This document shows positions 26,740 through 46,963 of a stretch of 64,000 nucleotides of DNA, piece after piece. This stretch comes from Bacteroidales bacterium (GTDB lineage Bacteria; Bacteroidota; Bacteroidia; Bacteroidales; GCA-2748055). The notes under the pieces are model-generated. The model was given only the letters and a program-made list of their open reading frames with translations, was not told the origin of the DNA and did no database searches. A program made the translations under genes and the position numbers. Positions within the stretch are counted from its first letter, which is position 1. Each line of letters starts with the position of its first letter. The DNA lies in contig JAOZQY010000001.1 of the NCBI GenBank assembly GCA_029931975.1, forward strand, positions 24,003 to 88,002, in the 5' to 3' direction.

Positions 26740-27573
26740 ATGAAAAAGGCACTGTATCAACAACCAGGCATATTTGTAATAGGATTAGTGATCTCTATTT
26801 TGCTAATCTTTTCCGCTTGTAACACAACACAGAAGAAGCAGGGAGATGTAGCTATGGCGGATGGGGAATCTGCCACAAAAGAAGAAGTTGTAAAAGATCT
26901 TTCCGGTTATCCAATTCCCACATCCTATGAGATTACAACGCTCATTTACCAGGCAGGAGCCCCTTATATACAGTCCCTTTCCAATGGTCCTGAAAAAGCA
27001 GGTGAGTATATCACTCAGCGCGATAAAGTGCTGAACCTAGGTGTATATGCAACGGACCTCTGTTACGCAACTACCTATATGATGAAGCAGGGAACCATGA
27101 ATTACCTGGAAGCATCCAAAACCCTCATTGATGATCTTGGGATTTCGACCACCTTTAACATAAAATATGCGGAGCGCATTGAGATAAATATAGATAACCG
27201 CGATTCCCTGATTCAGATTGTTGGAGAATCTTTCGAGGATACATGGAATTATCTGGTTGATAATCAGCAGGATGTATTGGCCCGCCTGGTCGTATGCGGA
27301 AGCTGGATAGAAGGGATCTATATTACCACTAATGTTGCGATAAAAGCAATTGACAATACATCTTTTCTCGAGGCGCTTGCAAAGCAAAAGAATTCCTTGA
27401 ATCAACTGGTCACTATCCTTGAACCTGTCAAAGATGTGGAGGAGGTGACTGATTTATACAAGGGCTTGTTCGAACTTCAGTCTTTCTATGAAGGAGTTGG
27501 AGATGTTTTGACCGGTGAGCAGTTGACCGAAGTTTCAGCCCTGGTGGAGACCTTGCGCAGCGGTATAGTATAG
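26740..27573 (+). CDS. Helical lipoprotein, paralog of 39280..40227
   Basis: Start placed at Met30 of the listed ORF (MKKALY...LLIFSAC lipobox). Collinear by eye with the 315-aa lipoprotein of the intact operon (LNLGVYATDLCYA vs ALGIYMTDLAYSA; CGSWIEGIYITTN vs SAGAFIESLYLAAN). Confidence 0.6.
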   Translation: MKKALYQQPGIFVIGLVISILLIFSACNTTQKKQGDVAMADGESATKEEVVKDLSGYPIPTSYEITTLIYQAGAPYIQSLSNGPEKAGEYITQRDKVLNLGVYATDLCYATTYMMKQGTMNYLEASKTLIDDLGISTTFNIKYAERIEINIDNRDSLIQIVGESFEDTWNYLVDNQQDVLARLVVCGSWIEGIYITTNVAIKAIDNTSFLEALAKQKNSLNQLVTILEPVKDVEEVTDLYKGLFELQSFYEGVGDVLTGEQLTEVSALVETLRSGIV

Positions 27574-27607: not shown

Positions 27608-29293
27608 ATGAAAGAGGCCGTATTAAATGCGCTGTTACAGCTATTTGCAATAATAGCCAATGTATCAGAGGATGGTGTTTCTTTCAAAGCCAGGTCAATT
27701 GTTAAAGCTTTTCTCAGACAACACCTGAAAACCAACCTGATCAATAAATATCTGGTTGTCTTTGATAGTTACCTGGAAATTCATCATCCCGATTTGTTTG
27801 GTGGTGAAATTAGGAGCCGCAGGCAAACCCTTTCCGACTTGGAGAGACTGAAATATATTACTGAGGAGATAAACAGGAGTTTGCTTCAGCGCGAAAAATT
27901 CATCGTTTTTTTTACGACTGGTTGAATTCATCAATGAAGATGATATAATGACCGCCAAAGAGCTAGCCTTTATAAGGACCATAGCCGATTCATTCAATAT
28001 TTCCAGGACAGAGCATGATAACACGAAGAACTTTGTACTGAATGCATACAATGCCATTGACAAGGAGCATATCATGGTAATTGACAGTATGAAGTTACCT
28101 GAGATCAAGGGAATCAGGCACCAGAGGGAGAAGGATCTGGAGGGCAGGATCGCCATCCTTCATCACCCTAGCACAGACACATTTGTGGTTCGCTACCTGG
28201 GTGACCTGAACCTGTTCCTGAACGGGCGACCAGTTATTCCTGAAAGAATTGAACTATTGGAACAGGGATCCTTAATTACAGGGTCGCTGATCAGCCCGGT
28301 TTATTACAGCGATATTTCCAGAAAATTTCATCATGTCAAGGAGTTCACAAAGATTTCCTTTGTGGCAAAGGATATTGAATATCGCTTTAAGAACAGCAAC
28401 AAAGGGATAAAAAAATTCAGCTTCAGCAAAGAGTCGGGCAATTTGATTGGAATTATGGGTGGAAGCGGGGTAGGGAAGTCGACCCTGCTTAATTTATTGT
28501 GTGGAAAGTTGAAGCCGCTTTCGGGACAAATTACAATCAATGGCTATGATATCCACCAGGAAGAGTCTGAAATAGAGGGAATTCTTGGTTTTGTTCCCCA
28601 GGATGATCTTTTGCTGGAAGAACTAACGGTTTTTATGAATCTCTATCTTAATGCCAAACTCTGTCTGAGCAACCTGACTGAAAAAGAACTGCTGAGGAGG
28701 GTCCATCAGGTTCTTACGGATCTGGACCTGGAGGAGATAAAGCACCTGAAGGTTGGTAATCCCCTGAAAAAGTTTATCAGCGGTGGACAGCGTAAAAGAC
28801 TCAATATCGCCCTTGAGCTGATCAGGGAATCACTGGTTTTGTTTGTGGATGAACCCACGTCCGGACTCTCGTCCATGGGCTCGGAAAAGGTGATGTTGCT
28901 TCTGAAGGAGCAGGCCCTAAAAGGAAGGAAGTCCGGGTTCTGGAACTTATCGATAAGTGGGGCGGAAAGGAAGCATATGTGGAAATGAATAATAACTATT
29001 CTAATAAAAGACTTGAGGATTTGCTTTTAAATAAGGGTCAGTTTGTGACAGAATGGAATACGCACCTGGTAAGGAAAGAGGCCCCGATATACCAGGTACC
29101 CAATTCCAGAATTGGCAGGGCACATTTGTTCGCACCGGTAAAACGACTGGGCCCTCTTTCTATTGGAACTTACTGGTTTAACATGCTTGCTATCTGGATT
29201 TCTGTCATTATTTTTTTCATTACCCTGTATTACGACCTCTTGCGGAAATTCACCACATGGAACCGGATCCGGAAACTGCGTAAAAGTACCTAG
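27608..29293 (+). pseudogene. Decayed paralog of the 1028-aa TerB-like ABC ATPase/permease (frameshift plus large internal deletion)
   Basis: Three consecutive ORFs (27608-27925, 27948-28988, 28979-29293) align in order to residues ~1-105, ~105-445 and ~900-1028 of the protein encoded at 40263..43349. The frame changes at a T8 tract and again at ~28920. Walker A, signature and Walker B are retained; the H-loop and all permease helices are absent. Confidence 0.7.
27906..27913 (+). repeat. T8 homopolymer at the first frameshift site of the decayed ABC gene
   Basis: Counted directly: cgTTTTTTTTacg. Removing one T joins ...REKFIVFF to LRLVEFINEDDIMTAKEL. Confidence 0.9.
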
Positions 29294-37536: not shown

Positions 37537-38787
37537 TTGTATCAGATGGAACAATTTGATGTTATTGTTGTTGGAGCTGGTCCTGCAGGCCTGTTGGCTG
37601 CAGGAAGTGCGGCGGAGAAGGGAGGACGGGTACTTGTCCTGGAAAAGATGAGGCAGGAGGGGCGGAAGTTGCTGATTACAGGAAAGGGACGATGTAACAT
37701 TACCAATGATGCCAATGTGAGCGAATTCATAAGGCATGTCTATCCTAATGGCAGGTTTCTTCGCACTGCATTCGGGCTTTTTTTTTCCAAAGAGATTCTG
37801 GAGTTACTTCAAAGATACGGGGTGGAGACTACCTGCGAGCGGGGTGGTCGCTACTTCCCCACCAGCAACAGGTCGGCAGATGTATTAATGGCACTGTTAA
37901 AGTGGGTAAATGAAAAAAAGGTAGATATTCGTTGTGGAATGAAGGTTGAAAAACTGCTCGTTGAAAATCAAATCATAAAGGGAGTGCAGGCAAATGGCAA
38001 GGAGTTCAGAGCTGGTAAGGTAATCCTGGCCACCGGGGGGAAATCTTATCCGGCCACCGGATCTAACGGGGAAGGCTATGAATTGGCCCGTTCTGTGGGA
38101 CATACTATTGTTCCTGTAAGACCAGCCCTGGTTCCTCTGGAAACGGGAGGTAATCTGGCCCGGCAGCTGCAGGGCCTCACCTTGAAAAATGTGCGGGCAA
38201 CAATCTGGGTAAATGGAAAAAAGGACGGAGAAGATTTTGGTGAGATGATCTTTACCCATTTTGGATTATCAGGGCCCATCATACTTTCCCTTAGCAGGAT
38301 TGTGGTTGATGCCCTGCATCAGAAAAGTGCAGTGGAGATCAGTATCGATCTGAAGCCGGCTCTTGATGAACAAAAGCTGGATGTACGTTTGCTTCGGGAT
38401 CTTAATGAAGCCGGAAAAAAGAATATTTCCAATCTGTTCCGGAATTGGTTACCTGCCTCAATGATCCCTGTTTTTTTGAAATCTCTTGGAATTGATCCGG
38501 GAAAGGTTGGGCATCAGGTTTCCTCCAAAGAACGAAAGAGTATTAGAAATATGATGAAAGATTTCCGTTTTGAAATCAAGGGACACCGGTCGTTTAAGGA
38601 GGCCATCATTACAGCAGGTGGTGTCGCCACAAAAGAAATCACATCAAAAACAATGGAGTCCAAGCTGGTATTCGGACTCTATTTCGCTGGAGAGGTGATC
38701 GATGTGGATGCCGAAACAGGGGGGTATAATCTGCAGATTGCCTACTCTACCGGATTTCTGGCAGGGAGATCACTAAAGCAGTTATAG
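37537..38787 (+). CDS. NAD(P)/FAD-dependent oxidoreductase of the HI0933/BaiN-like family
   Basis: FDVIVVGAGPAGLLAA dinucleotide fold and C-terminal GGYNLQIAYSTG, typical of HI0933-like flavoproteins. Confidence 0.85.
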   Translation: MYQMEQFDVIVVGAGPAGLLAAGSAAEKGGRVLVLEKMRQEGRKLLITGKGRCNITNDANVSEFIRHVYPNGRFLRTAFGLFFSKEILELLQRYGVETTCERGGRYFPTSNRSADVLMALLKWVNEKKVDIRCGMKVEKLLVENQIIKGVQANGKEFRAGKVILATGGKSYPATGSNGEGYELARSVGHTIVPVRPALVPLETGGNLARQLQGLTLKNVRATIWVNGKKDGEDFGEMIFTHFGLSGPIILSLSRIVVDALHQKSAVEISIDLKPALDEQKLDVRLLRDLNEAGKKNISNLFRNWLPASMIPVFLKSLGIDPGKVGHQVSSKERKSIRNMMKDFRFEIKGHRSFKEAIITAGGVATKEITSKTMESKLVFGLYFAGEVIDVDAETGGYNLQIAYSTGFLAGRSLKQL

Positions 38788-39267
38788 CTGGAGACTCACT
38801 TTTTTTCTTGAATAATTCTTGTATTGAATCAATAGTCCCAGGCATCCAACTTTATCTTCGATCTCCTCCTCGGTGGACTTTCTTGCCAGGACATCCACCT
38901 TGATGGTCAATGGTTTTGCAACATCAAATCCAAGACCAATCGATTCCAGATAATTGTCCTCAGCGTTATCGTAAAGCACGTCCTGGGTCTGCTGGTCGAT
39001 CAGGATAAAGTGAATGGGGTACAATTTACTATGGGTGCAAAAGGAGAGAACATAGTCTTTTTGTCCATAAAATACCACATTGAATTCAACGGTGTCCAGG
39101 GCGCTTATGCTTGTCGAGTGGGACTGGCTGTATGTTTTGTAACCTTTCTGAAGGTCGGAATTGCAATCTCCCTCCAGGTGATGTGTTTCGCAATTCTGTG
39201 CAATCAAATGGCCGGGGAGAATCAGAAAGAGTATAGCCAGAACCTGCATTTGTCCTTTTCGTTTCAT
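38782..39267 (-). CDS. Small secreted Cys-containing protein, last gene of the ABC operon
   Basis: Signal peptide (VLAILFLILPGHLIAQ), four Cys, 161 aa. Starts 12 nt after the lipoprotein stop on the same strand. No family recognised. Confidence 0.5.
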   Translation of the reverse strand: MKRKGQMQVLAILFLILPGHLIAQNCETHHLEGDCNSDLQKGYKTYSQSHSTSISALDTVEFNVVFYGQKDYVLSFCTHSKLYPIHFILIDQQTQDVLYDNAEDNYLESIGLGFDVAKPLTIKVDVLARKSTEEEIEDKVGCLGLLIQYKNYSRKKVSLQL

Positions 39268-39279
39268 ATTTTCCCAGAT

Positions 39280-40227
39280 TTATAAATTTGCTGTTACAGT
39301 GTTATTTCTCAACTCAATGATGGCGGCCTTCAAAGCATTAAATTCATCTTCAGTTAAACTGGGCTGACTTGTTGACTTGCCCCCTCCGATGACCAGCTTT
39401 TTTAGCTGCTTGTCATCCGATTCTTTAGATGGTTTGATGGTGACTCTCCCTGTTGCTGGTTTAATTCCGTCGTAGATGCTTTTTATTTTCTCCAGACCCT
39501 CAATGGTCGATATTACACCGGGATCATCAGAATCCAAGCTTTTTGCAAAGACCATGAAGTTATCAATGGCGAATTTTTGATCGGCCAGGTGCTGTAGTGA
39601 GGCATCTGCAGTTAGGTAACTATCAATCATGTTTGCTGCAAGATACAGGCTCTCAATAAATGCACCGGCAGAGATCATCACCACTGTATTGGACCTTTCA
39701 TTTCTTTCACAGAAATGGAGGATATTTATAAATGCATCATTAGAGATGGTGTAAAGAGAATCCAGAAATTCAATGTTGTCCTGAGCTTTCTTAATCATCT
39801 CCTCATCCACAGCTTCATTTATTTGAATTTCCTCAGCCAGAGATTTCGCGACTTCCAAATAATCCAGTGTCTCCTCGTGCCTGCCAAAAAGAGCTGAGTA
39901 GGCCAGATCGGTCATGTAAATACCCAGAGCCTGAGTTTTCATTTTAGTGCCAAGATATTGATCTGCCCTTTCCACGGGATTGAGGAGTGAGCCGTCAAAG
40001 CTCATTTCAAACATATCTATTACGCTTAGCATCTCTGTAGGAGATGGGAATAGATAAAAAACCTGACTGAATGATTCAATTCCGGCTGATGATGCTGTAT
40101 TGTCTACATCCTGGATTAGCACATTGGATTCCTTTTTCCCTGACTGGCAAGCTGAGGCCATTATCATGGCGATCACTATCGCCACGGGAACGATGTTCTT
40201 TCGTAAAGGTTTCATATCGTTTTTCAT
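39280..40227 (-). CDS. Helical lipoprotein partner of the ABC protein
   Basis: Lipobox IMASAC. Paralogous by eye to 26740..27573. Starts 35 nt after the ABC gene stop. Confidence 0.6.
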   Translation of the reverse strand: MKNDMKPLRKNIVPVAIVIAMIMASACQSGKKESNVLIQDVDNTASSAGIESFSQVFYLFPSPTEMLSVIDMFEMSFDGSLLNPVERADQYLGTKMKTQALGIYMTDLAYSALFGRHEETLDYLEVAKSLAEEIQINEAVDEEMIKKAQDNIEFLDSLYTISNDAFINILHFCERNERSNTVVMISAGAFIESLYLAANMIDSYLTADASLQHLADQKFAIDNFMVFAKSLDSDDPGVISTIEGLEKIKSIYDGIKPATGRVTIKPSKESDDKQLKKLVIGGGKSTSQPSLTEDEFNALKAAIIELRNNTVTANL

Positions 40228-40262
40228 TGTAAACTTGGTTCAATTTAAACAAATTTTCCATA

Positions 40263-43200
40263 TTAACTTCCTGGGGGCCTCTTTCTCTTCAGACTGCCAG
40301 AATATACAATAAGCTTTTGTAATACACTATACCTTAAGAGAAGGTAAAGGATCAGTGTCATTAACCAAATGGCCGAAAGATTAAAGTAGAGTGTGGGTAT
40401 CTGCCAGTTTCCCACGAGCTTGACAGATGCATAAAAATGGGCACGACCATTCCTTTTGACGGGATAGGTGTAGACCGGGTCCATTTTGCTAAGAAGTAAG
40501 CCATCTCTTTTAACTAACTTGTGCAGATCATTTCGGTTTAAGACCAATTGAGCCAATTGTTCATTATAATAGCTTCTTTTCAACTGAATATATGCCTCCA
40601 GTCCCCCGGTAACCATCATCAGAGAATCAATCAGATTATCTTTTTCCCGGGTAAGCCTGTCCCGGTGCAGACGAAGTGCAGACTGGTAATTGTGCAGCCA
40701 TTGGATAATATCCTTACCAGCTTCTGCAGAGAAGTGATCCTGGTTGATGTATTCTGGATGCGGGTAAGGTGTGGTCAGAAAAATGGAGGAGAGGGCATTG
40801 TCAATGGTCTGAAGATACCCTGATAAGGCCTGATCATCAGGATTGGTCTGTTGTAAAGCAACGGCATCCTCTATCTCTTGTGTTAGTCTGGGAATAAGGA
40901 ATTGCATATCGTAGGTAATATTGCTCTCTAATCTTTCAATATCATAGAGTGGCTTCTGGTATGCATTATTCATAAACTGATTGACCGACAGGGCTTCATA
41001 AGCCCATCGGCTGGCCATCAAATCACCTGGAAAGGGGACCACCTGAGTGGTTGTAAATTTGTAATGGAGCTTGTCAAATTTTACGATAACACCGGCCAGG
41101 AGAATCTGGGGTACCAAGAGAAACGGAACTATAACATAGATGGCAACCGCAGATTTCAGACCATCAGAAATAAGAAGTCCAAGCATATTAGCAAAACATG
41201 CTGTAGAGAAGAGGATCAGCCAATAAGAGAAGCTCAGTCCACGGATCTCCATAATAAAGTTGCCAACTATCACAAACATCAGCATCTGGATGCCGGACAG
41301 GATAAATAACAGGGAGATCTTGGAAAATAGATAGGCTGTCCTGCTCAGGTGGAGAAATGATTCCCGCTCCTGGATTCTACGGTCTCGGTGGATCTCTTCA
41401 GCAGCGATAATCAGTCCGAGAAAAAGCGCCACAATTACACTCATAAACAGATAGGCCGGGAGGTTTTCATTCTGACTGAAAATGTAGAGGTGTGGGTCTT
41501 GTTCATTACCGGAAACATATTTTGAGAAGAATCCAAGAATAAGCGCCAGAAAGGGAGCCACAAGTAGTGCCATGGACATAAACTGCCGATCGGCCAGCTT
41601 TGAAAGCAGGTTCCTTGTAAAGAAGATCTGACATTGTCGCAATGCCCCTGGAATCATGAATTTAATTGATGGGATATCCTTTTTTTCAGTATTGAATTCC
41701 TGTCCCTTCTCAATCTTTTCCAAATATGTGGAGTACCATTCAGGAGGAGAAGACTTGCGCTGTGTTGTATAAGCTCCATATTCATCCACATCTTTGGCCT
41801 CAATCACTCCAAGTATGTCGTTTGGATTAACATTTCCGCAAGTCGGGCATTCACTTTCAGCAGCATCTACCCTTCCGGCCAGTTTTTTGAAGTAAGTGAT
41901 TCCATCAATCGGATTTCCTGAATAGACCGGGTATCCTCCTCTGTCGAGTACAATAAGGTGATCAAATTGCTTGAACAGTTCGGAGGAGGGCTGGTGTATG
42001 GTTGAAACGACCAGCTTTCCTTTGAGTGTCTGTTCTTTTAGCAAAGCAATCACATGTTCAGAATCGGTTGAGGAGAGTCCAGATGTGGGTTCATCCACAA
42101 AAAGAATTTGGGGCTCACGAATCAATTCGAGGGCAATATTTAGTCGTTTTCGCTGACCTCCACTGATGTACTTATTAAGAGGGGATCCTACTTTTAAGCT
42201 TTTAGCATCGCTAAGATCCAGTTCCTTAAGAAGCTTTTCGACTGCATTATTAATCTCTTCAGAAGTGTGTCCATCCAAACATAATTTTGCATTGAACAGA
42301 AGATTCTGCTCAACTGTCAGTTCCTCAATCAACAGGTCGTCCTGTGGAATGTATCCGATCATTCCATCAAGCTCACCGCTTTTTTTATGAAGGTTGCGGC
42401 CATTGATATAAATACCTCCTGATTGTGGTTTCAGCTCTCCATTCAATACCTTCAAAAGGGTTGATTTGCCAGCTCCGCTTCCTCCCATGATTCCTACCAG
42501 TTGGCCGGATCGGCCCATAAAGCTGAATTTCTTAATTCCGTGAGTTGAATTCCTGAATTGGTACTTTATCTCCTTGGCGCAGAAATTGATTGATTTTGTC
42601 TTGATGTCCTGGAAATACCTGGATACAATTTCAGAGTAATAGATGGGAGAGATGCCCTCACTTCGTATAGAACCACCCCGGGAAAAAATATATACATGTT
42701 TTGGGAAAATATATTTCTCATTGTTTAGTAGTTTTGCTTTTCCGATATACTGGAACATGTATATGTCAGCTCGTTGTATGGTAAAGAATAAGATTTGTCC
42801 GGAAAGTCCATTTTTCTGAATATGCTTGATGTTTCCATCCATGAAATCAGGGTCATCACTAACAATAAGCAAACTCTCCTTCCCGGGGACCTGATAGAAC
42901 TTATCCTTGATAAAGGCCGAGCAATTCTCAAACTCTTTGTCGGTGATCAACAGGCCACTGGCTATTGTGCGAACTGAATCAGAGATAGTACCGGAAAATC
43001 CAGTGCCTGACATTCCTGCATCTGAAAAATATTTGGTAAATCTTATTAAGCTTATGAGGATCATAAACCGTTGGGAGATATGCAGCTCATCGACAATTTG
43101 TTTACAGATCCCCAGTATTTTCACCGACCAGGCAGAGATTTTCTTTTCTTTCTGGTCACTACCCACCAGCTCCATCTCACTGGCATACTGATCAAAGATC

Positions 43201-43349
43201 AGTAAGTATTTTTCTGTCAGGGATTTACTGAATTGCCGGGTAAGATAAGTCTCTACAAAATTCCTTGCAAGGAGATACATAGCTCCCCTGTTGATGTTCA
43301 CCATAATGGCAAACAAACGCATCAAGGAATTGAGCATGGAATCATTCAT
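40263..43349 (-). CDS. Fused ABC ATPase/ABC-2-type permease with TerB-like N-terminal region and long C-terminal extension
   Basis: Walker A GGSGAGKST (42462-42491), Q-loop IPQDD, signature ISGGQRKR, Walker B ILFVDEPTSG, H-loop STIHQPS. About six hydrophobic helices lie between residues ~585 and ~760, followed by a ~230-aa hydrophilic region and a final TM helix (~985-1010). 1028 aa. Confidence 0.85.
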   Translation of the reverse strand: MNDSMLNSLMRLFAIMVNINRGAMYLLARNFVETYLTRQFSKSLTEKYLLIFDQYASEMELVGSDQKEKKISAWSVKILGICKQIVDELHISQRFMILISLIRFTKYFSDAGMSGTGFSGTISDSVRTIASGLLITDKEFENCSAFIKDKFYQVPGKESLLIVSDDPDFMDGNIKHIQKNGLSGQILFFTIQRADIYMFQYIGKAKLLNNEKYIFPKHVYIFSRGGSIRSEGISPIYYSEIVSRYFQDIKTKSINFCAKEIKYQFRNSTHGIKKFSFMGRSGQLVGIMGGSGAGKSTLLKVLNGELKPQSGGIYINGRNLHKKSGELDGMIGYIPQDDLLIEELTVEQNLLFNAKLCLDGHTSEEINNAVEKLLKELDLSDAKSLKVGSPLNKYISGGQRKRLNIALELIREPQILFVDEPTSGLSSTDSEHVIALLKEQTLKGKLVVSTIHQPSSELFKQFDHLIVLDRGGYPVYSGNPIDGITYFKKLAGRVDAAESECPTCGNVNPNDILGVIEAKDVDEYGAYTTQRKSSPPEWYSTYLEKIEKGQEFNTEKKDIPSIKFMIPGALRQCQIFFTRNLLSKLADRQFMSMALLVAPFLALILGFFSKYVSGNEQDPHLYIFSQNENLPAYLFMSVIVALFLGLIIAAEEIHRDRRIQERESFLHLSRTAYLFSKISLLFILSGIQMLMFVIVGNFIMEIRGLSFSYWLILFSTACFANMLGLLISDGLKSAVAIYVIVPFLLVPQILLAGVIVKFDKLHYKFTTTQVVPFPGDLMASRWAYEALSVNQFMNNAYQKPLYDIERLESNITYDMQFLIPRLTQEIEDAVALQQTNPDDQALSGYLQTIDNALSSIFLTTPYPHPEYINQDHFSAEAGKDIIQWLHNYQSALRLHRDRLTREKDNLIDSLMMVTGGLEAYIQLKRSYYNEQLAQLVLNRNDLHKLVKRDGLLLSKMDPVYTYPVKRNGRAHFYASVKLVGNWQIPTLYFNLSAIWLMTLILYLLLRYSVLQKLIVYSGSLKRKRPPGS

Positions 43350-44460
43350 TTGGGAGAACCATTTTCATTTTCCCTTTACCTTCTTTCGATTTTTCAAATA
43401 TTAAACTACCGTCATGGGCTTCCATGATGATCTGGGAAACCGCCAATCCTATTCCCATGGTAAGGTTCAGGGAAAAATTATTGCTTGAAAACTGATCAAT
43501 CAAAATACTGAACAGGGTCTCAGAATAGTTATTTCCCCCATCTTCCACCAGGCACTCCATCGTTCCGTTTAAGTTTGAGGAAGTGATGGTAATCTCTCCA
43601 TTTTCCGGGGTGTGTTCCTTTGCGAAATGGATCAGGTTTACCAGGCAACTCACCAGCAAATCAGAATCTCCTTTTAGCTGGTGGGCATCTGTGCCCACAT
43701 GTATATTTAGTTTGATATCCAGTTCCTTCAGTTCTTCACTGGTCTCGATGGTGCTATACTGAATGACCTCTTGTATGGAAATCGGCTGTTTTTCCAATGA
43801 GAATCCCGGGGATTTTAAAATGGAGATCTGCTGGGCCAGCATGGAGAACTGCTCCAGTTTAAATACCGATTTATCGAGGATATTGACCACTTCGGTGAGT
43901 TCATCTCCTTCAATTTTACTCTTCAACAAGTGCAGTGTTCCCATCATTCGGTTCAGTGGAGGCGTGATTTCATTGCTGATGGAGTTGATGATTTCGGACT
44001 TTAAGCCGTCCATGTTTAACAATTCGGCATTCATTTTCTCAAGCTCTTCCAGAATTTGTTGATTTTTCTTTTTCAGGTGGAAGACTTCAACAGAATTCAT
44101 TATTGTAGCTCTGACTTCATCAGACTGAAAGGGCTTTTTAATGTATCCATGAACACGGCCAACGTTAACCGCATCAATTACTGTTTCTGCTTCAGTAAAG
44201 GCGGTTAAAAGGTACCTCCGGATATCGGGATATTTCTCTGCGACAATTTCCAATAATTCGATTCCAGTCATCTCCGGCATTCGCTGGTCGGAAACAATTA
44301 CCTGGATTTCTTTTTCCTCAAGAATTTTTAGAGCCTCACGAGGGAATTCGGTCAGAGTAATATCGAAGTCTTTTTTGAAAGTTTCCTTGAACAACATCAG
44401 GTTCACAGGAACATCATCCACATACAGTACAACAGGTTTTTCCTGGTCCATGGCAAGCAA
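43342..44460 (-). CDS. Receiver domain fused to a degenerate histidine-kinase-like domain
   Basis: REC motifs: YVDDV, VIVSDQRMPEMTG, LLTAF, KKPF. The H-box-like segment reads SEIINSISNEITPPLN (Asn where His is expected). The N-box-like segment reads LVNLIHFAKEHT (Phe where Asn is expected). The G2-like segment is MGIGLAV. The stop overlaps the ABC gene start by 8 nt (ATGAATGA). Confidence 0.8.
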   Translation of the reverse strand: MLAMDQEKPVVLYVDDVPVNLMLFKETFKKDFDITLTEFPREALKILEEKEIQVIVSDQRMPEMTGIELLEIVAEKYPDIRRYLLTAFTEAETVIDAVNVGRVHGYIKKPFQSDEVRATIMNSVEVFHLKKKNQQILEELEKMNAELLNMDGLKSEIINSISNEITPPLNRMMGTLHLLKSKIEGDELTEVVNILDKSVFKLEQFSMLAQQISILKSPGFSLEKQPISIQEVIQYSTIETSEELKELDIKLNIHVGTDAHQLKGDSDLLVSCLVNLIHFAKEHTPENGEITITSSNLNGTMECLVEDGGNNYSETLFSILIDQFSSNNFSLNLTMGIGLAVSQIIMEAHDGSLIFEKSKEGKGKMKMVLPNE

Positions 44461-44601
44461 CAGTTAATAGGTTGAGTTGATATTGCAATATAATTCAATT
44501 TCGTGTGTATTTTACGCTTGATTAGAGATATAATTGTTAAAAACTTTCCTGCGGCCTGCAGTGATTTAACCCTTGAGTGCTTCGAAAGCCAAAACTTTTA
44601 A

Positions 44602-44871
44602 CTTTTTGTTAGGTTTTTTGAAAGGGGTTTTATTAGTTTGCTTGGACCTGGCGGTATTCATACCCTCAAGGTTCTTCCAATGAACGGGAGCCGGGTCTCT
44701 TCTATGGGGGTGGATGCCCCGGGTTCTTATCAAATCGATTTGGCCGAATTTGAGCAAGGGAGCTATCTCATTCAGGTGGACAGCGACCAGGAATTCACCT
44801 CGCAAATAATCATCAAGCAATATATATTTCTTGCAAGTGGATGCATATTCTTTTCCAGATATAGGCTGTGA
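44602..44871 (+). pseudogene. Orphan fragment resembling the C-terminal sorting domain of a type IX secretion substrate
   Basis: The stop-to-stop frame encodes LKVLPMNGSRVSSMGVDAPGSYQIDLAEFEQGSYLIQVDSDQEFTSQIIIKQ. This matches the usual CTD pattern (x-V-x-D-x-x-G-R-x-V ... G-x-Y-x-I-D-L-S-x-L-x-x-G-x-Y-L-I-x-V ... K-I-I-K-Q). There is no upstream cargo domain. Confidence 0.45.
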
Positions 44872-45289
44872 TCGCATCATTTGCATACGATCAAATGATG
44901 CAATCACCATGGTTTTGTAGGACAACATGGCCGAAGTACTTTTGTGCCGTAATGAGATTTACCCGATCTGGGATTTAAGCAAACAGATAAGCATTATCCC
45001 CAGAGTTTTGGATTACCCTTTTGGGGAAATCTGATTCTGGGAGTCCATGTATCTTATGGCAGGGAGCAGTTGCCAGAAATGTGTAAATACGCCCAGCTCA
45101 TTCCCGCGATGGGTACCCGGTGTAAGGTAAAGCATGAAAACATGTGAAGTTTCCAGTACCAGGAATACGATTCTGTGGGAAGTAATAAAAAGCAAAAAAA
45201 TGATGTTGATAAGCACATGATTCACCTTCATTCGGTGTGTGATTAATATCTAATTTCACAGGCATTAATATACCAAAGGAGATAGTGAT

Positions 45290-46890: not shown

Positions 46891-46963
46891 AGCCTCTCAG
46901 GGGACTCGAACCCCCGACCTGTTCATTACGAATGAACTGCTCTGCCAGCTGAGCTAAAGAGGC
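46891..46963 (-). tRNA. tRNA-Thr (anticodon CGU)
   Basis: Folded by hand into a 73-nt cloverleaf: acceptor GCCTCTT/GAGAGGC, D arm GCTC-AGCTGGCA-GAGC, anticodon arm GTTCA-TTCGTAA-TGAAC, variable AGGTC, T arm GGGGG-TTCGAGT-CCCCT. CCA is not encoded. Confidence 0.9.

Follow-up and report, generated by a model that had tools for sequence, protein, structure and literature searches.

A putative signal-regulated ABCG-type transport cassette with dedicated envelope partners in Bacteroidota

Background

What might be achieved by a compact group of genes that sets a signaling protein beside an ATP-binding cassette half transporter and two proteins bearing export signals? This question is raised by four adjacent genes in a stretch of 64,000 nucleotides from a Bacteroidales bacterium (GenBank assembly GCA_029931975.1, contig JAOZQY010000001.1, positions 24,003 to 88,002), referred to below as the window. 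We call these genes, in transcription order, RRHK, ABC, LIPO and SMALL. RRHK encodes a receiver fused to a kinase-like module, ABC a 1028-amino acid half transporter of ABCG type, LIPO a predicted lipoprotein and SMALL a predicted secreted protein. On balance, we find it somewhat probable that the cassette forms a signal-regulated inner-membrane exporter of the ABCG fold (type V) with dedicated periplasmic partners. This reading draws on architecture, motifs, topology, export signals and conserved linkage.

An earlier note on this DNA had proposed a signal-gated envelope module specific to Bacteroidota. The idea of such a module holds up in several respects: profile searches assign none of the accessory proteins to a known pathway, the genes form a conserved block, the listed relatives are all Bacteroidota, and the layout resembles that of a regulated exporter known from Mycobacterium tuberculosis. 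The domain reading of the transporter, on the other hand, needed two corrections, which are given below with the corresponding protein regions.

A conserved four-gene block

The four genes lie on the minus strand at the coordinates initially described, with the same 8-nt overlap and the same gaps of 35 and 12 nt. The RRHK reading frame (43342-44460) encodes 372 amino acids from a TTG codon; an ATG three codons in, at 44451, gives 369 amino acids, the length of RRHK in most orthologues, and is likely to be the actual start. The RRHK stop overlaps the start of ABC (40263-43349) by 8 nt within ATGAATGA (43342-43349), and the two genes are predicted to be translationally coupled in the window. LIPO (39280-40227, 315 amino acids) follows after 35 nt; gene callers begin it at a methionine at 40215, which shortens the protein to 311 amino acids and would make the spacing from ABC 47 nt. 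SMALL (38782-39267, 161 amino acids) begins 12 nt after LIPO.

With the N-terminal module of ABC as query, we surveyed a single genome for each species. Relatives were obtained in 217 genomes, of which 80 loci (labeled L with a number below) were listed, and open reading frames (ORFs) of related loci were typed with iterated hidden Markov models (HMMs). The order RRHK, ABC, LIPO, SMALL is observed in about 45 of the 80 listed loci, namely those in which the N-terminal identity is at least 40%. When neighboring genes were clustered over 48 core loci, only four families came out as universal: RRHK (46 loci), ABC (48), LIPO (45) and SMALL (39); where a family is missing, the contig ends or the assembly is fragmented. 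At 18 of 36 loci, RRHK and ABC overlap by 4 or 8 nt, and the distance between them never exceeds 78 nt; the median gap is 54 nt between ABC and LIPO and 15 nt between LIPO and SMALL. Such a recurrent order, combined with such short junctions, argues that the arrangement is not due to chance. The window also shares flanking genes with genomes of the L005 type, in rearranged form, and there the intact four-gene block is found on their opposite side. Conservation of the neighborhood, which the earlier note had named as a check, is thus observed: the block is kept in about 45 loci and moves as a unit.

Other recurrent neighbors are specific to sub-clades. They include haem-binding domain proteins, a 182-amino acid lipoprotein, a 157-amino acid lipoprotein, PorP/SprF and a PD40/SPOR-like protein. 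Because of this restricted distribution, we ruled out as components the haem-binding domain proteins, PorP/SprF, the PD40/SPOR-like protein, an S9-peptidase-like protein and LPG_synthase_TM. All 80 listed loci come from metagenome-assembled genomes (MAGs) of Bacteroidota. The supposed restriction to this phylum therefore agrees with the listed loci, but it is too broad for the full four-gene form, which is limited to one clade.

Beyond this clade, the cassette takes other forms. A related clade, with 33-37% identity in the N-terminal module, has the order LIPO, SMALL, ABC and no RRHK; ABC homologues further removed, which are equally long, lack conserved partners. We also considered five distant genes of the LIPO family. 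Three of them adjoin an ABCG-type gene of the size of ABC, which two precede and one follows. In this last arrangement (L085 / L086, 1174-8516), ABC is followed by LIPO and by a gene of the size of SMALL, with a receiver gene (392 amino acids) in divergent orientation; an LPG_synthase_TM gene comes next on the same strand. Another of the five forms a pair with a SMALL-sized gene and has no ABC (L083, 6001-7395, plus strand), in the same MAG assembly as the full cassette of L033, and one has neither ABC nor SMALL beside it. Additional LIPO-SMALL pairs without a neighboring ABC are present in L013 (1573-3522, minus strand) and L021 (1966-2782, plus strand), the former preceded by RRHK fragments as if ABC had been deleted. 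In L024, L042, L045 and L054, ABC and/or RRHK is split into several ORFs; since several of these loci come from a single MAG series (MFD03804 bins), assembly indel errors are just as likely an explanation as true pseudogenes.

An ABCG-type half transporter with an enlarged periplasmic loop

In ABC, the nucleotide-binding domain (NBD) precedes the membrane domain. Pfam assigns ABC_tran to residues 273-423 (112.5 bits, against a cut-off of 25) and ABC2_membrane to residues 571-791 (59.9 bits, cut-off 26.9), and the nearest relatives by sequence in the PDB are Cdr1/Pdr5, ABCA3/4 and ABCG1/2/5. The homologues, more than 120, are uniformly about 1020-1030 amino acids long. The NBD (residues ~257-495; 41865-42581, minus strand) had been described as a complete ABC ATPase, and all motifs are indeed present in the alignment: GGSGAGKST (Walker A), PQDDLL (Q-loop), ISGGQRKR (signature), LFVDEPTSGL (Walker B with its D-E) and IHQPS (H-loop) are kept in at least 95% of 120 homologues. 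On sequence, we place ABC in the ABCG/ABC-2 (type V) exporter class, with an NBD that is catalytically complete as judged by its motifs. It scores 253.8 bits with the NCBIfam model TIGR00955 (eye-pigment-precursor/White), far below the cut-off of 736.35, and so does not belong to the White/EPP subfamily.

A short cysteine-containing motif is observed downstream of the NBD. Residues 501-513 (about 41811-41849) read C-P-T-C-G-N-V-N-P-N-D-I-L, with C501, C504, G505 and P509 conserved, and resemble the CP..NPA(D/E) motif located after the NBD of ABCG/PDR proteins. An alignment with Cdr1 matches CP to CP and the final P to P.

The topology of the membrane domain required a first correction: the region had been read as about six ABC-2 helices followed by a C-terminal extension ending in one transmembrane (TM) helix. 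Hydropathy places helices at residues 590-608, 632-650, 678-696, 710-728 and 737-755, then a hydrophilic stretch at 756-986 and a last helix at 987-1009. The alignment with ABCG1 extends through TM5 of that protein (PVLLFSGFFVSFD against PQILLAGVIVKFD), then ends. Because the NBD is cytoplasmic, the stretch of about 230 amino acids corresponds to an enlarged loop on the periplasmic side that joins TM5 to TM6, where ABCG proteins have their extracellular loop EL3. ABC is accordingly predicted to have six TM helices per half, arranged as five plus one: TM1-TM5 (residues ~571-757; 41079-41639), the enlarged loop (residues ~758-986; 40392-41078), and TM6 (987-1009) with a basic cytoplasmic tail (KRKR; 40266-40391), all on the minus strand. 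Of all parts of ABC, the TM5-TM6 loop is the least conserved.

An FHA-like module at the N terminus of the transporter

Residues 1-258 of ABC, which precede the NBD, were modeled with AlphaFold2 from an alignment of 15 sequences (pLDDT 81, pTM 0.80). The model has seven helices forming a predicted cytoplasmic bundle (residues 3-148; 42906-43343, minus strand), followed by a nine-strand sandwich (strands at 160-237) packed against them. A helical N terminus and a beta-rich region had both been noticed in the sequence, and both reappear in the model. The second correction concerns the helical part, which had been likened to TerB: neither Pfam at E ≤ 10 nor a family profile run against PDB sequences returned TerB, and it is absent from the 50 Foldseek matches listed, none of these searches having taken the helical sub-domain on its own. 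A TerB identity (PF05099) of residues 1-148 is therefore unsupported.

For the sandwich (residues ~155-245; 42615-42887, minus strand), the evidence comes from structure comparison. Residues 1-258 have no Pfam match at E ≤ 10, including PF00498 (FHA) over residues 144-259, and the profile of the N-terminal family has no match in PDB sequences at the same threshold. Among the 50 Foldseek matches listed from the PDB, on the other hand, almost all are FHA domains (probability 0.9-1.0, E-value 0.05-0.5, template-modeling score by target 0.3-0.56), including those of Rad53 (FHA1), Mek1, CEP170, KIF1A, PNKP and EmbR. In the model, the beta-rich region is thus FHA-like by fold, with the assignment resting on modest E-values. 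Placing the canonical FHA residues on the model strands by eye, we find V-S-D-D instead of the GR pair and E-I-K-H176, without the Ser, instead of SxxH. H176, G184, R193 and G203 are invariant in 120 homologues, and of the canonical phosphothreonine-binding residues only the His is kept. In the absence of the canonical GR and Ser, phosphothreonine binding cannot be presumed.

A receiver joined to a kinase-like module without its histidine

RRHK begins with a receiver domain (residues 11-120; 44101-44430, minus strand; Pfam Response_reg, 71.7 bits). Alignment of 41 orthologues from related loci with the window sequence, 42 sequences in all, shows D15, D16 and D58 to be invariant; position 86 is Thr in 39 sequences and Ser in 3, and the lysine of the 'KP' motif, K109, is kept in at least 90%. 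With its Pfam match, acidic pocket, phospho-accepting Asp, Thr and Lys, the domain has all the attributes expected of a receiver.

The remainder of the protein resembles the DHp and CA domains of histidine kinases. A DHp-like helix region covers residues 154-199 (43864-44001), where HisKA scores 17.4 bits, under its cut-off of 26.9. A degenerate CA domain covers residues 264-364 (43369-43671), where HATPase_c reaches 32 bits, just over its cut-off of 26.4. The H-box reads SNEITPPL, against S-H-E-L-R-T-P-L in kinases, with Asn163 replacing the phospho-acceptor His. In the orthologues this position holds mainly N (19), Q (7), R (6), S (3), K (2) and H (2), and no His is found in 40 of the 42 sequences. 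The Asn of the N-box corresponds to Phe279 in the window (F19, N14 and H6 in the orthologues), and the G1 and G2 boxes are partly kept. Without its His, the kinase-like module cannot autophosphorylate in the canonical way. The description of this first gene as a receiver/pseudo-kinase can therefore be extended from one protein to the family, in which an intact receiver and a lost His are conserved properties.

Two unannotated families of envelope proteins

LIPO and SMALL are predicted, from their export signals and conserved cysteines, to sit outside the cytoplasm. The signal peptide of LIPO ends in a lipobox (...IAMIMASAC27) whose Cys27 is invariant in 58 sequences. An AlphaFold2 model of the protein (pLDDT 73.5) consists of a disordered tether, an all-alpha core (residues 85-253), a low-confidence segment (~254-292; 39349-39468 in the window) and a last helix (293-311), in agreement with the helical lipoprotein first proposed for this gene. 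The low-confidence segment bears a near-invariant motif, KKLVIGG...SQP. LIPO appears to be an orphan fold: Foldseek comparison of the model with the PDB returns weak, generic helical bundles only (best E-value 0.57, template-modeling score <0.35), and no Pfam or NCBIfam match was found. A word-indexed search yields 310 relatives, every one annotated as 'hypothetical'; an exhaustive profile search reaches 2,662 cluster representatives (E ≤ 1e-3), 839 of them with E ≤ 1e-30, and cluster look-ups of distant relatives return 'hypothetical protein' labels only. The 150 best matches listed are in nearly every case stand-alone proteins, about 270-310 amino acids long, and none is fused to another domain.

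SMALL has the signal peptide expected of the small secreted protein described earlier. Its 270 homologues are all 'hypothetical' and contain no Pfam domain. Four cysteines are conserved: C26, C35, C77 and C142. Three distant members lack both C35 and C77 while retaining C26 and C142; this joint loss suggests disulfides between C35 and C77 and between C26 and C142.

The two families co-vary. We measured the LIPO segment that runs from the end of the helix at residue 253 to the last helix. In about 40 loci, a segment of 21-39 amino acids goes with a short SMALL (131-166 amino acids). In 8 loci, a segment of 8-12 amino acids goes with a long SMALL (187-227 amino acids) carrying a K/E-rich insertion of about 70 amino acids. 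In 8 loci, a LIPO paralogue described below has a segment of 7 amino acids and no SMALL. L061 and L075 share the order LIPO, SMALL, ABC with the long-SMALL group, yet combine a long segment with a short SMALL. The SMALL genes compared include those of L046, L048, L052, L053, L058-L061 and L075. This co-variation represents few independent events, in about three or four clades. That segment length follows the length or absence of SMALL suggests that LIPO and SMALL form a physical complex, to which either partner may provide an extended segment.

The paralogue in question, LIPO2, is encoded in the window itself (26740-27573, plus strand; HMM E-value 2.6e-80). It is intact, has 25% identity to LIPO, lacks an insert of about 30 amino acids and has no SMALL partner. 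It is followed by ABC2 (27608-29293, plus strand), a paralogue of ABC broken by a frameshift near 27925; it has also lost about 480 codons internally, and with them TM1-5 and the greater part of the periplasmic loop. The pair LIPO2-ABC2, again without SMALL, lies in divergent orientation upstream of RRHK in several genomes, with an intact ABC2 in L010 and L017. LIPO2 persists in L014, L016, L027 and L042, where ABC2 is either missing or reduced to fragments; it thus appears that ABC2 has been lost repeatedly while LIPO2 was kept.

Comparison with known systems

The earlier note could name no characterised system with this combination of proteins. Profile searches bear this out, as none of them puts an accessory protein in a known pathway. 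With the cassette proteins, their sub-regions and divergent LIPO and SMALL sequences as queries, Pfam, NCBIfam, PADLOC, PHROGs and the PDB return only generic REC, HATPase_c and ABC domains. Models of the Lol, Lpt, Mla, gliding (GldAFG) and bacteriocin systems detect only generic NBD similarity, well below their cut-offs (LolD 90.8 against 307.75, GldA 93.4 against 402.6, LptB 86.4 against 240, L_ocin_972_ABC 108 against 254.85), and LIPO and SMALL match none of them. Among anti-phage defence systems, PADLOC matches the NBD only (mad3, mad8, AbiLi) and none of the other three proteins. Our literature searches returned no description of this four-gene cassette.

Eukaryotic ABCG proteins, alongside ABCA3/4, are among the solved structures nearest to the transporter by sequence. 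Like ABCG1, ABCG2, ABCG5/G8 and Pdr5/Cdr1, the transporter has the NBD before the membrane domain, the IHQPS H-loop, the CP..NP motif and an extracytoplasmic TM5-TM6 loop; unlike them, it has a loop several-fold larger and an additional N-terminal regulatory module. In logic, the cassette also recalls LolCDE-LolA-LolB, LptB2FGC-LptA, MlaFEDB-MlaC-MlaA and FtsEX-EnvC, in which an inner-membrane ABC engine works with a small soluble periplasmic protein and a lipoprotein. However, LIPO and SMALL show no relationship to these systems in sequence or fold, and the transporter fold is ABCG/type V rather than that of MacB/FtsX, LptFG or MlaE. For the signaling protein, a parallel is provided by DivL of Caulobacter, a pseudo-histidine kinase whose DHp/CA module lacks the phospho-acceptor His and which presumably acts through protein-protein contacts. 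RRHK is likened to DivL by the generic histidine kinase fold alone; it differs in that its module is soluble, stands behind an intact receiver and is encoded by a gene coupled to a transporter gene.

The precedent already cited by the earlier note, Rv1747 of Mycobacterium tuberculosis, is the most instructive for regulation. There, the kinase PknF is encoded beside an FHA-bearing ABC exporter, which it regulates positively (PMC3138270, PMC3908365), and the combination of an N-terminal regulatory module with an adjoining signaling gene in our cassette fits the logic of this pair. In both Rv1747 and ABC, which are half transporters, an ABC-2/ABCG membrane domain follows the NBD and an FHA fold stands at the N terminus, and both have a signaling gene immediately upstream, which in the Rv1747 operon modulates the transporter. 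The differences are as clear. Rv1747 has two FHA domains and a phosphorylated linker, ABC a single FHA-like domain after a seven-helix bundle; the partner of Rv1747 is a Ser/Thr kinase, that of ABC a receiver/pseudo-histidine-kinase; and only the cassette has a TM5-TM6 loop of about 230 amino acids, two dedicated envelope proteins and a diderm Bacteroidota host. The ABC engine itself is well known, unlike its coupling to a signaling protein, its periplasmic loop and the LIPO and SMALL families.

Export and its alternatives

How could the four proteins work together? In the model that we propose, a histidine kinase encoded elsewhere would phosphorylate Asp58 of the RRHK receiver. RRHK would then bind the helical/FHA-like module of ABC and switch its ATPase and export activity, in parallel to the action of PknF on the FHA domains of Rv1747. 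An ABC homodimer would remove from the inner membrane an envelope component that is hydrophobic or linked to lipid, and its enlarged periplasmic loops would pass this component to a LIPO-SMALL complex serving as acceptor or chaperone. We may go further and picture a trans-envelope machine of the ABCG fold in a diderm, in which the TM5-TM6 domains dock a LIPO/SMALL complex that carries a lipidic envelope component off the inner membrane, with a phospho-receiver/pseudo-kinase switching the whole by way of a degenerate FHA-like domain. So specific a picture is tentative, and we consider it rather doubtful in its entirety.

Several observations weigh against a signal-regulated exporter. RRHK is missing from the clade with the order LIPO, SMALL, ABC and from distant homologues, which means that regulation by RRHK is not intrinsic to the family. 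Some LIPO-SMALL pairs and some genes of the LIPO family have no ABC beside them (L013, L083, L087). No Ser/Thr protein kinase is present among the conserved neighbors of the cassette; in its absence, and without the canonical phosphothreonine-binding Arg and Ser, the analogy with Rv1747 holds in logic and not in chemistry. Finally, every genome bearing the cassette is an uncultured MAG.

The alternative that fares best retains the same parts and dispenses with transport. As in FtsEX-EnvC or MacB/LolCDE, ATP hydrolysis could move the periplasmic loop and thereby switch LIPO-SMALL, for instance in envelope remodeling or signaling, with nothing crossing the membrane. The large periplasmic domain and dedicated partners would suit such mechanotransmission, as would the co-variation of LIPO and SMALL, which behave like members of a complex. 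No biosynthetic genes lie nearby and nothing at the locus points to a substrate. What makes this alternative unlikely in our eyes is the fold of ABC, which is that of ABCG/ABC-2: to our knowledge, those of its members that have been characterised export or flip their substrates, whereas mechanotransmission is known from proteins of the MacB/FtsX fold. Moreover, neither LIPO nor SMALL carries the signature of an enzyme or an enzyme activator.

We may also hypothesize that the signal runs in reverse. The transporter would detect or remove a toxic compound and report to RRHK, with LIPO and SMALL as binding or immunity proteins. The ingredients resemble those of the BceAB-BceS and LanFEG-LanI immunity modules, in which a lipoprotein and a protein of the two-component type accompany an ABC transporter with an extensive extracytoplasmic domain. 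However, RRHK lacks the phospho-acceptor His and so cannot initiate a phosphorelay, and the fold of ABC is unlike that of BceB, which is of FtsX type. The surroundings argue in the same direction: no bacteriocin or lanthipeptide genes are found nearby, the GC content of the cassette matches that of the surrounding DNA, and synteny looks vertically inherited and is kept within sub-clades. With PADLOC matching the ATPase core only, we regard a flux-sensing or resistance function as improbable.

Least convincing is the notion that the transporter and the two envelope proteins are functionally separate and adjacent by inherited synteny only: the partnerless LIPO-SMALL pairs, LIPO-family genes and distant ABC homologues mentioned above could be invoked in its favor, but since linkage persists through two gene orders, the rearrangement in the window and the LIPO2-ABC2 duplication while other neighbors vary, with junctions that are very short or overlapping, we find it very improbable.

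Sequences flanking the cassette

Downstream, SMALL and a convergent gene for an HI0933-like flavoprotein (37537-38787, plus strand) share 6 nt at their 3' ends (38782-38787). Because of this overlap, no intergenic space is available for a terminator after SMALL, and the sole terminator-like hairpin downstream on the minus strand (38679-38656) sits within the flavoprotein gene.

Upstream, a spacer of 829 nt (44461-45289) separates RRHK from a divergent glutamine-synthetase-like gene; in the closest relatives, L002 and L003, it is apparently about 100-200 nt long. Similarity to these two loci is limited to about 90 nt beside the synthetase gene, and the spacer in the window has some 600 nt of extra sequence. 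We detected in the spacer no gene remnant, no Rfam match and no repeat found elsewhere in the window, and a 120-amino acid ORF that it contains (44566-44928, minus strand) has no Pfam match. A scan for sigma-70 promoters returned fewer sites than in shuffled sequence, and the Bacteroidetes -33/-7 promoter pattern has no minus-strand site upstream of the cassette. Rfam identifies no RNA element within or upstream of the cassette; its only match at the gathering threshold in the whole window is a tRNA gene (46891-46963, minus strand).

Conclusions

The outer-membrane machinery of Bacteroidota is only partly understood, and several of the Lol and lipid-trafficking components of Proteobacteria are missing or divergent in this phylum. 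The cassette described here is a candidate for one such missing envelope pathway. Should the more specific picture outlined above prove true, it would be the first trans-envelope machine of the ABCG fold (type V) in a diderm, and would reveal a new coupling between two-component signaling and ABC transport. LIPO and SMALL define two sizeable protein families hitherto unannotated. As for regulation, the arrangement of RRHK with an FHA-like module would extend the principle of Rv1747, the post-translational gating of a transporter, from Ser/Thr phosphorylation to two-component chemistry.

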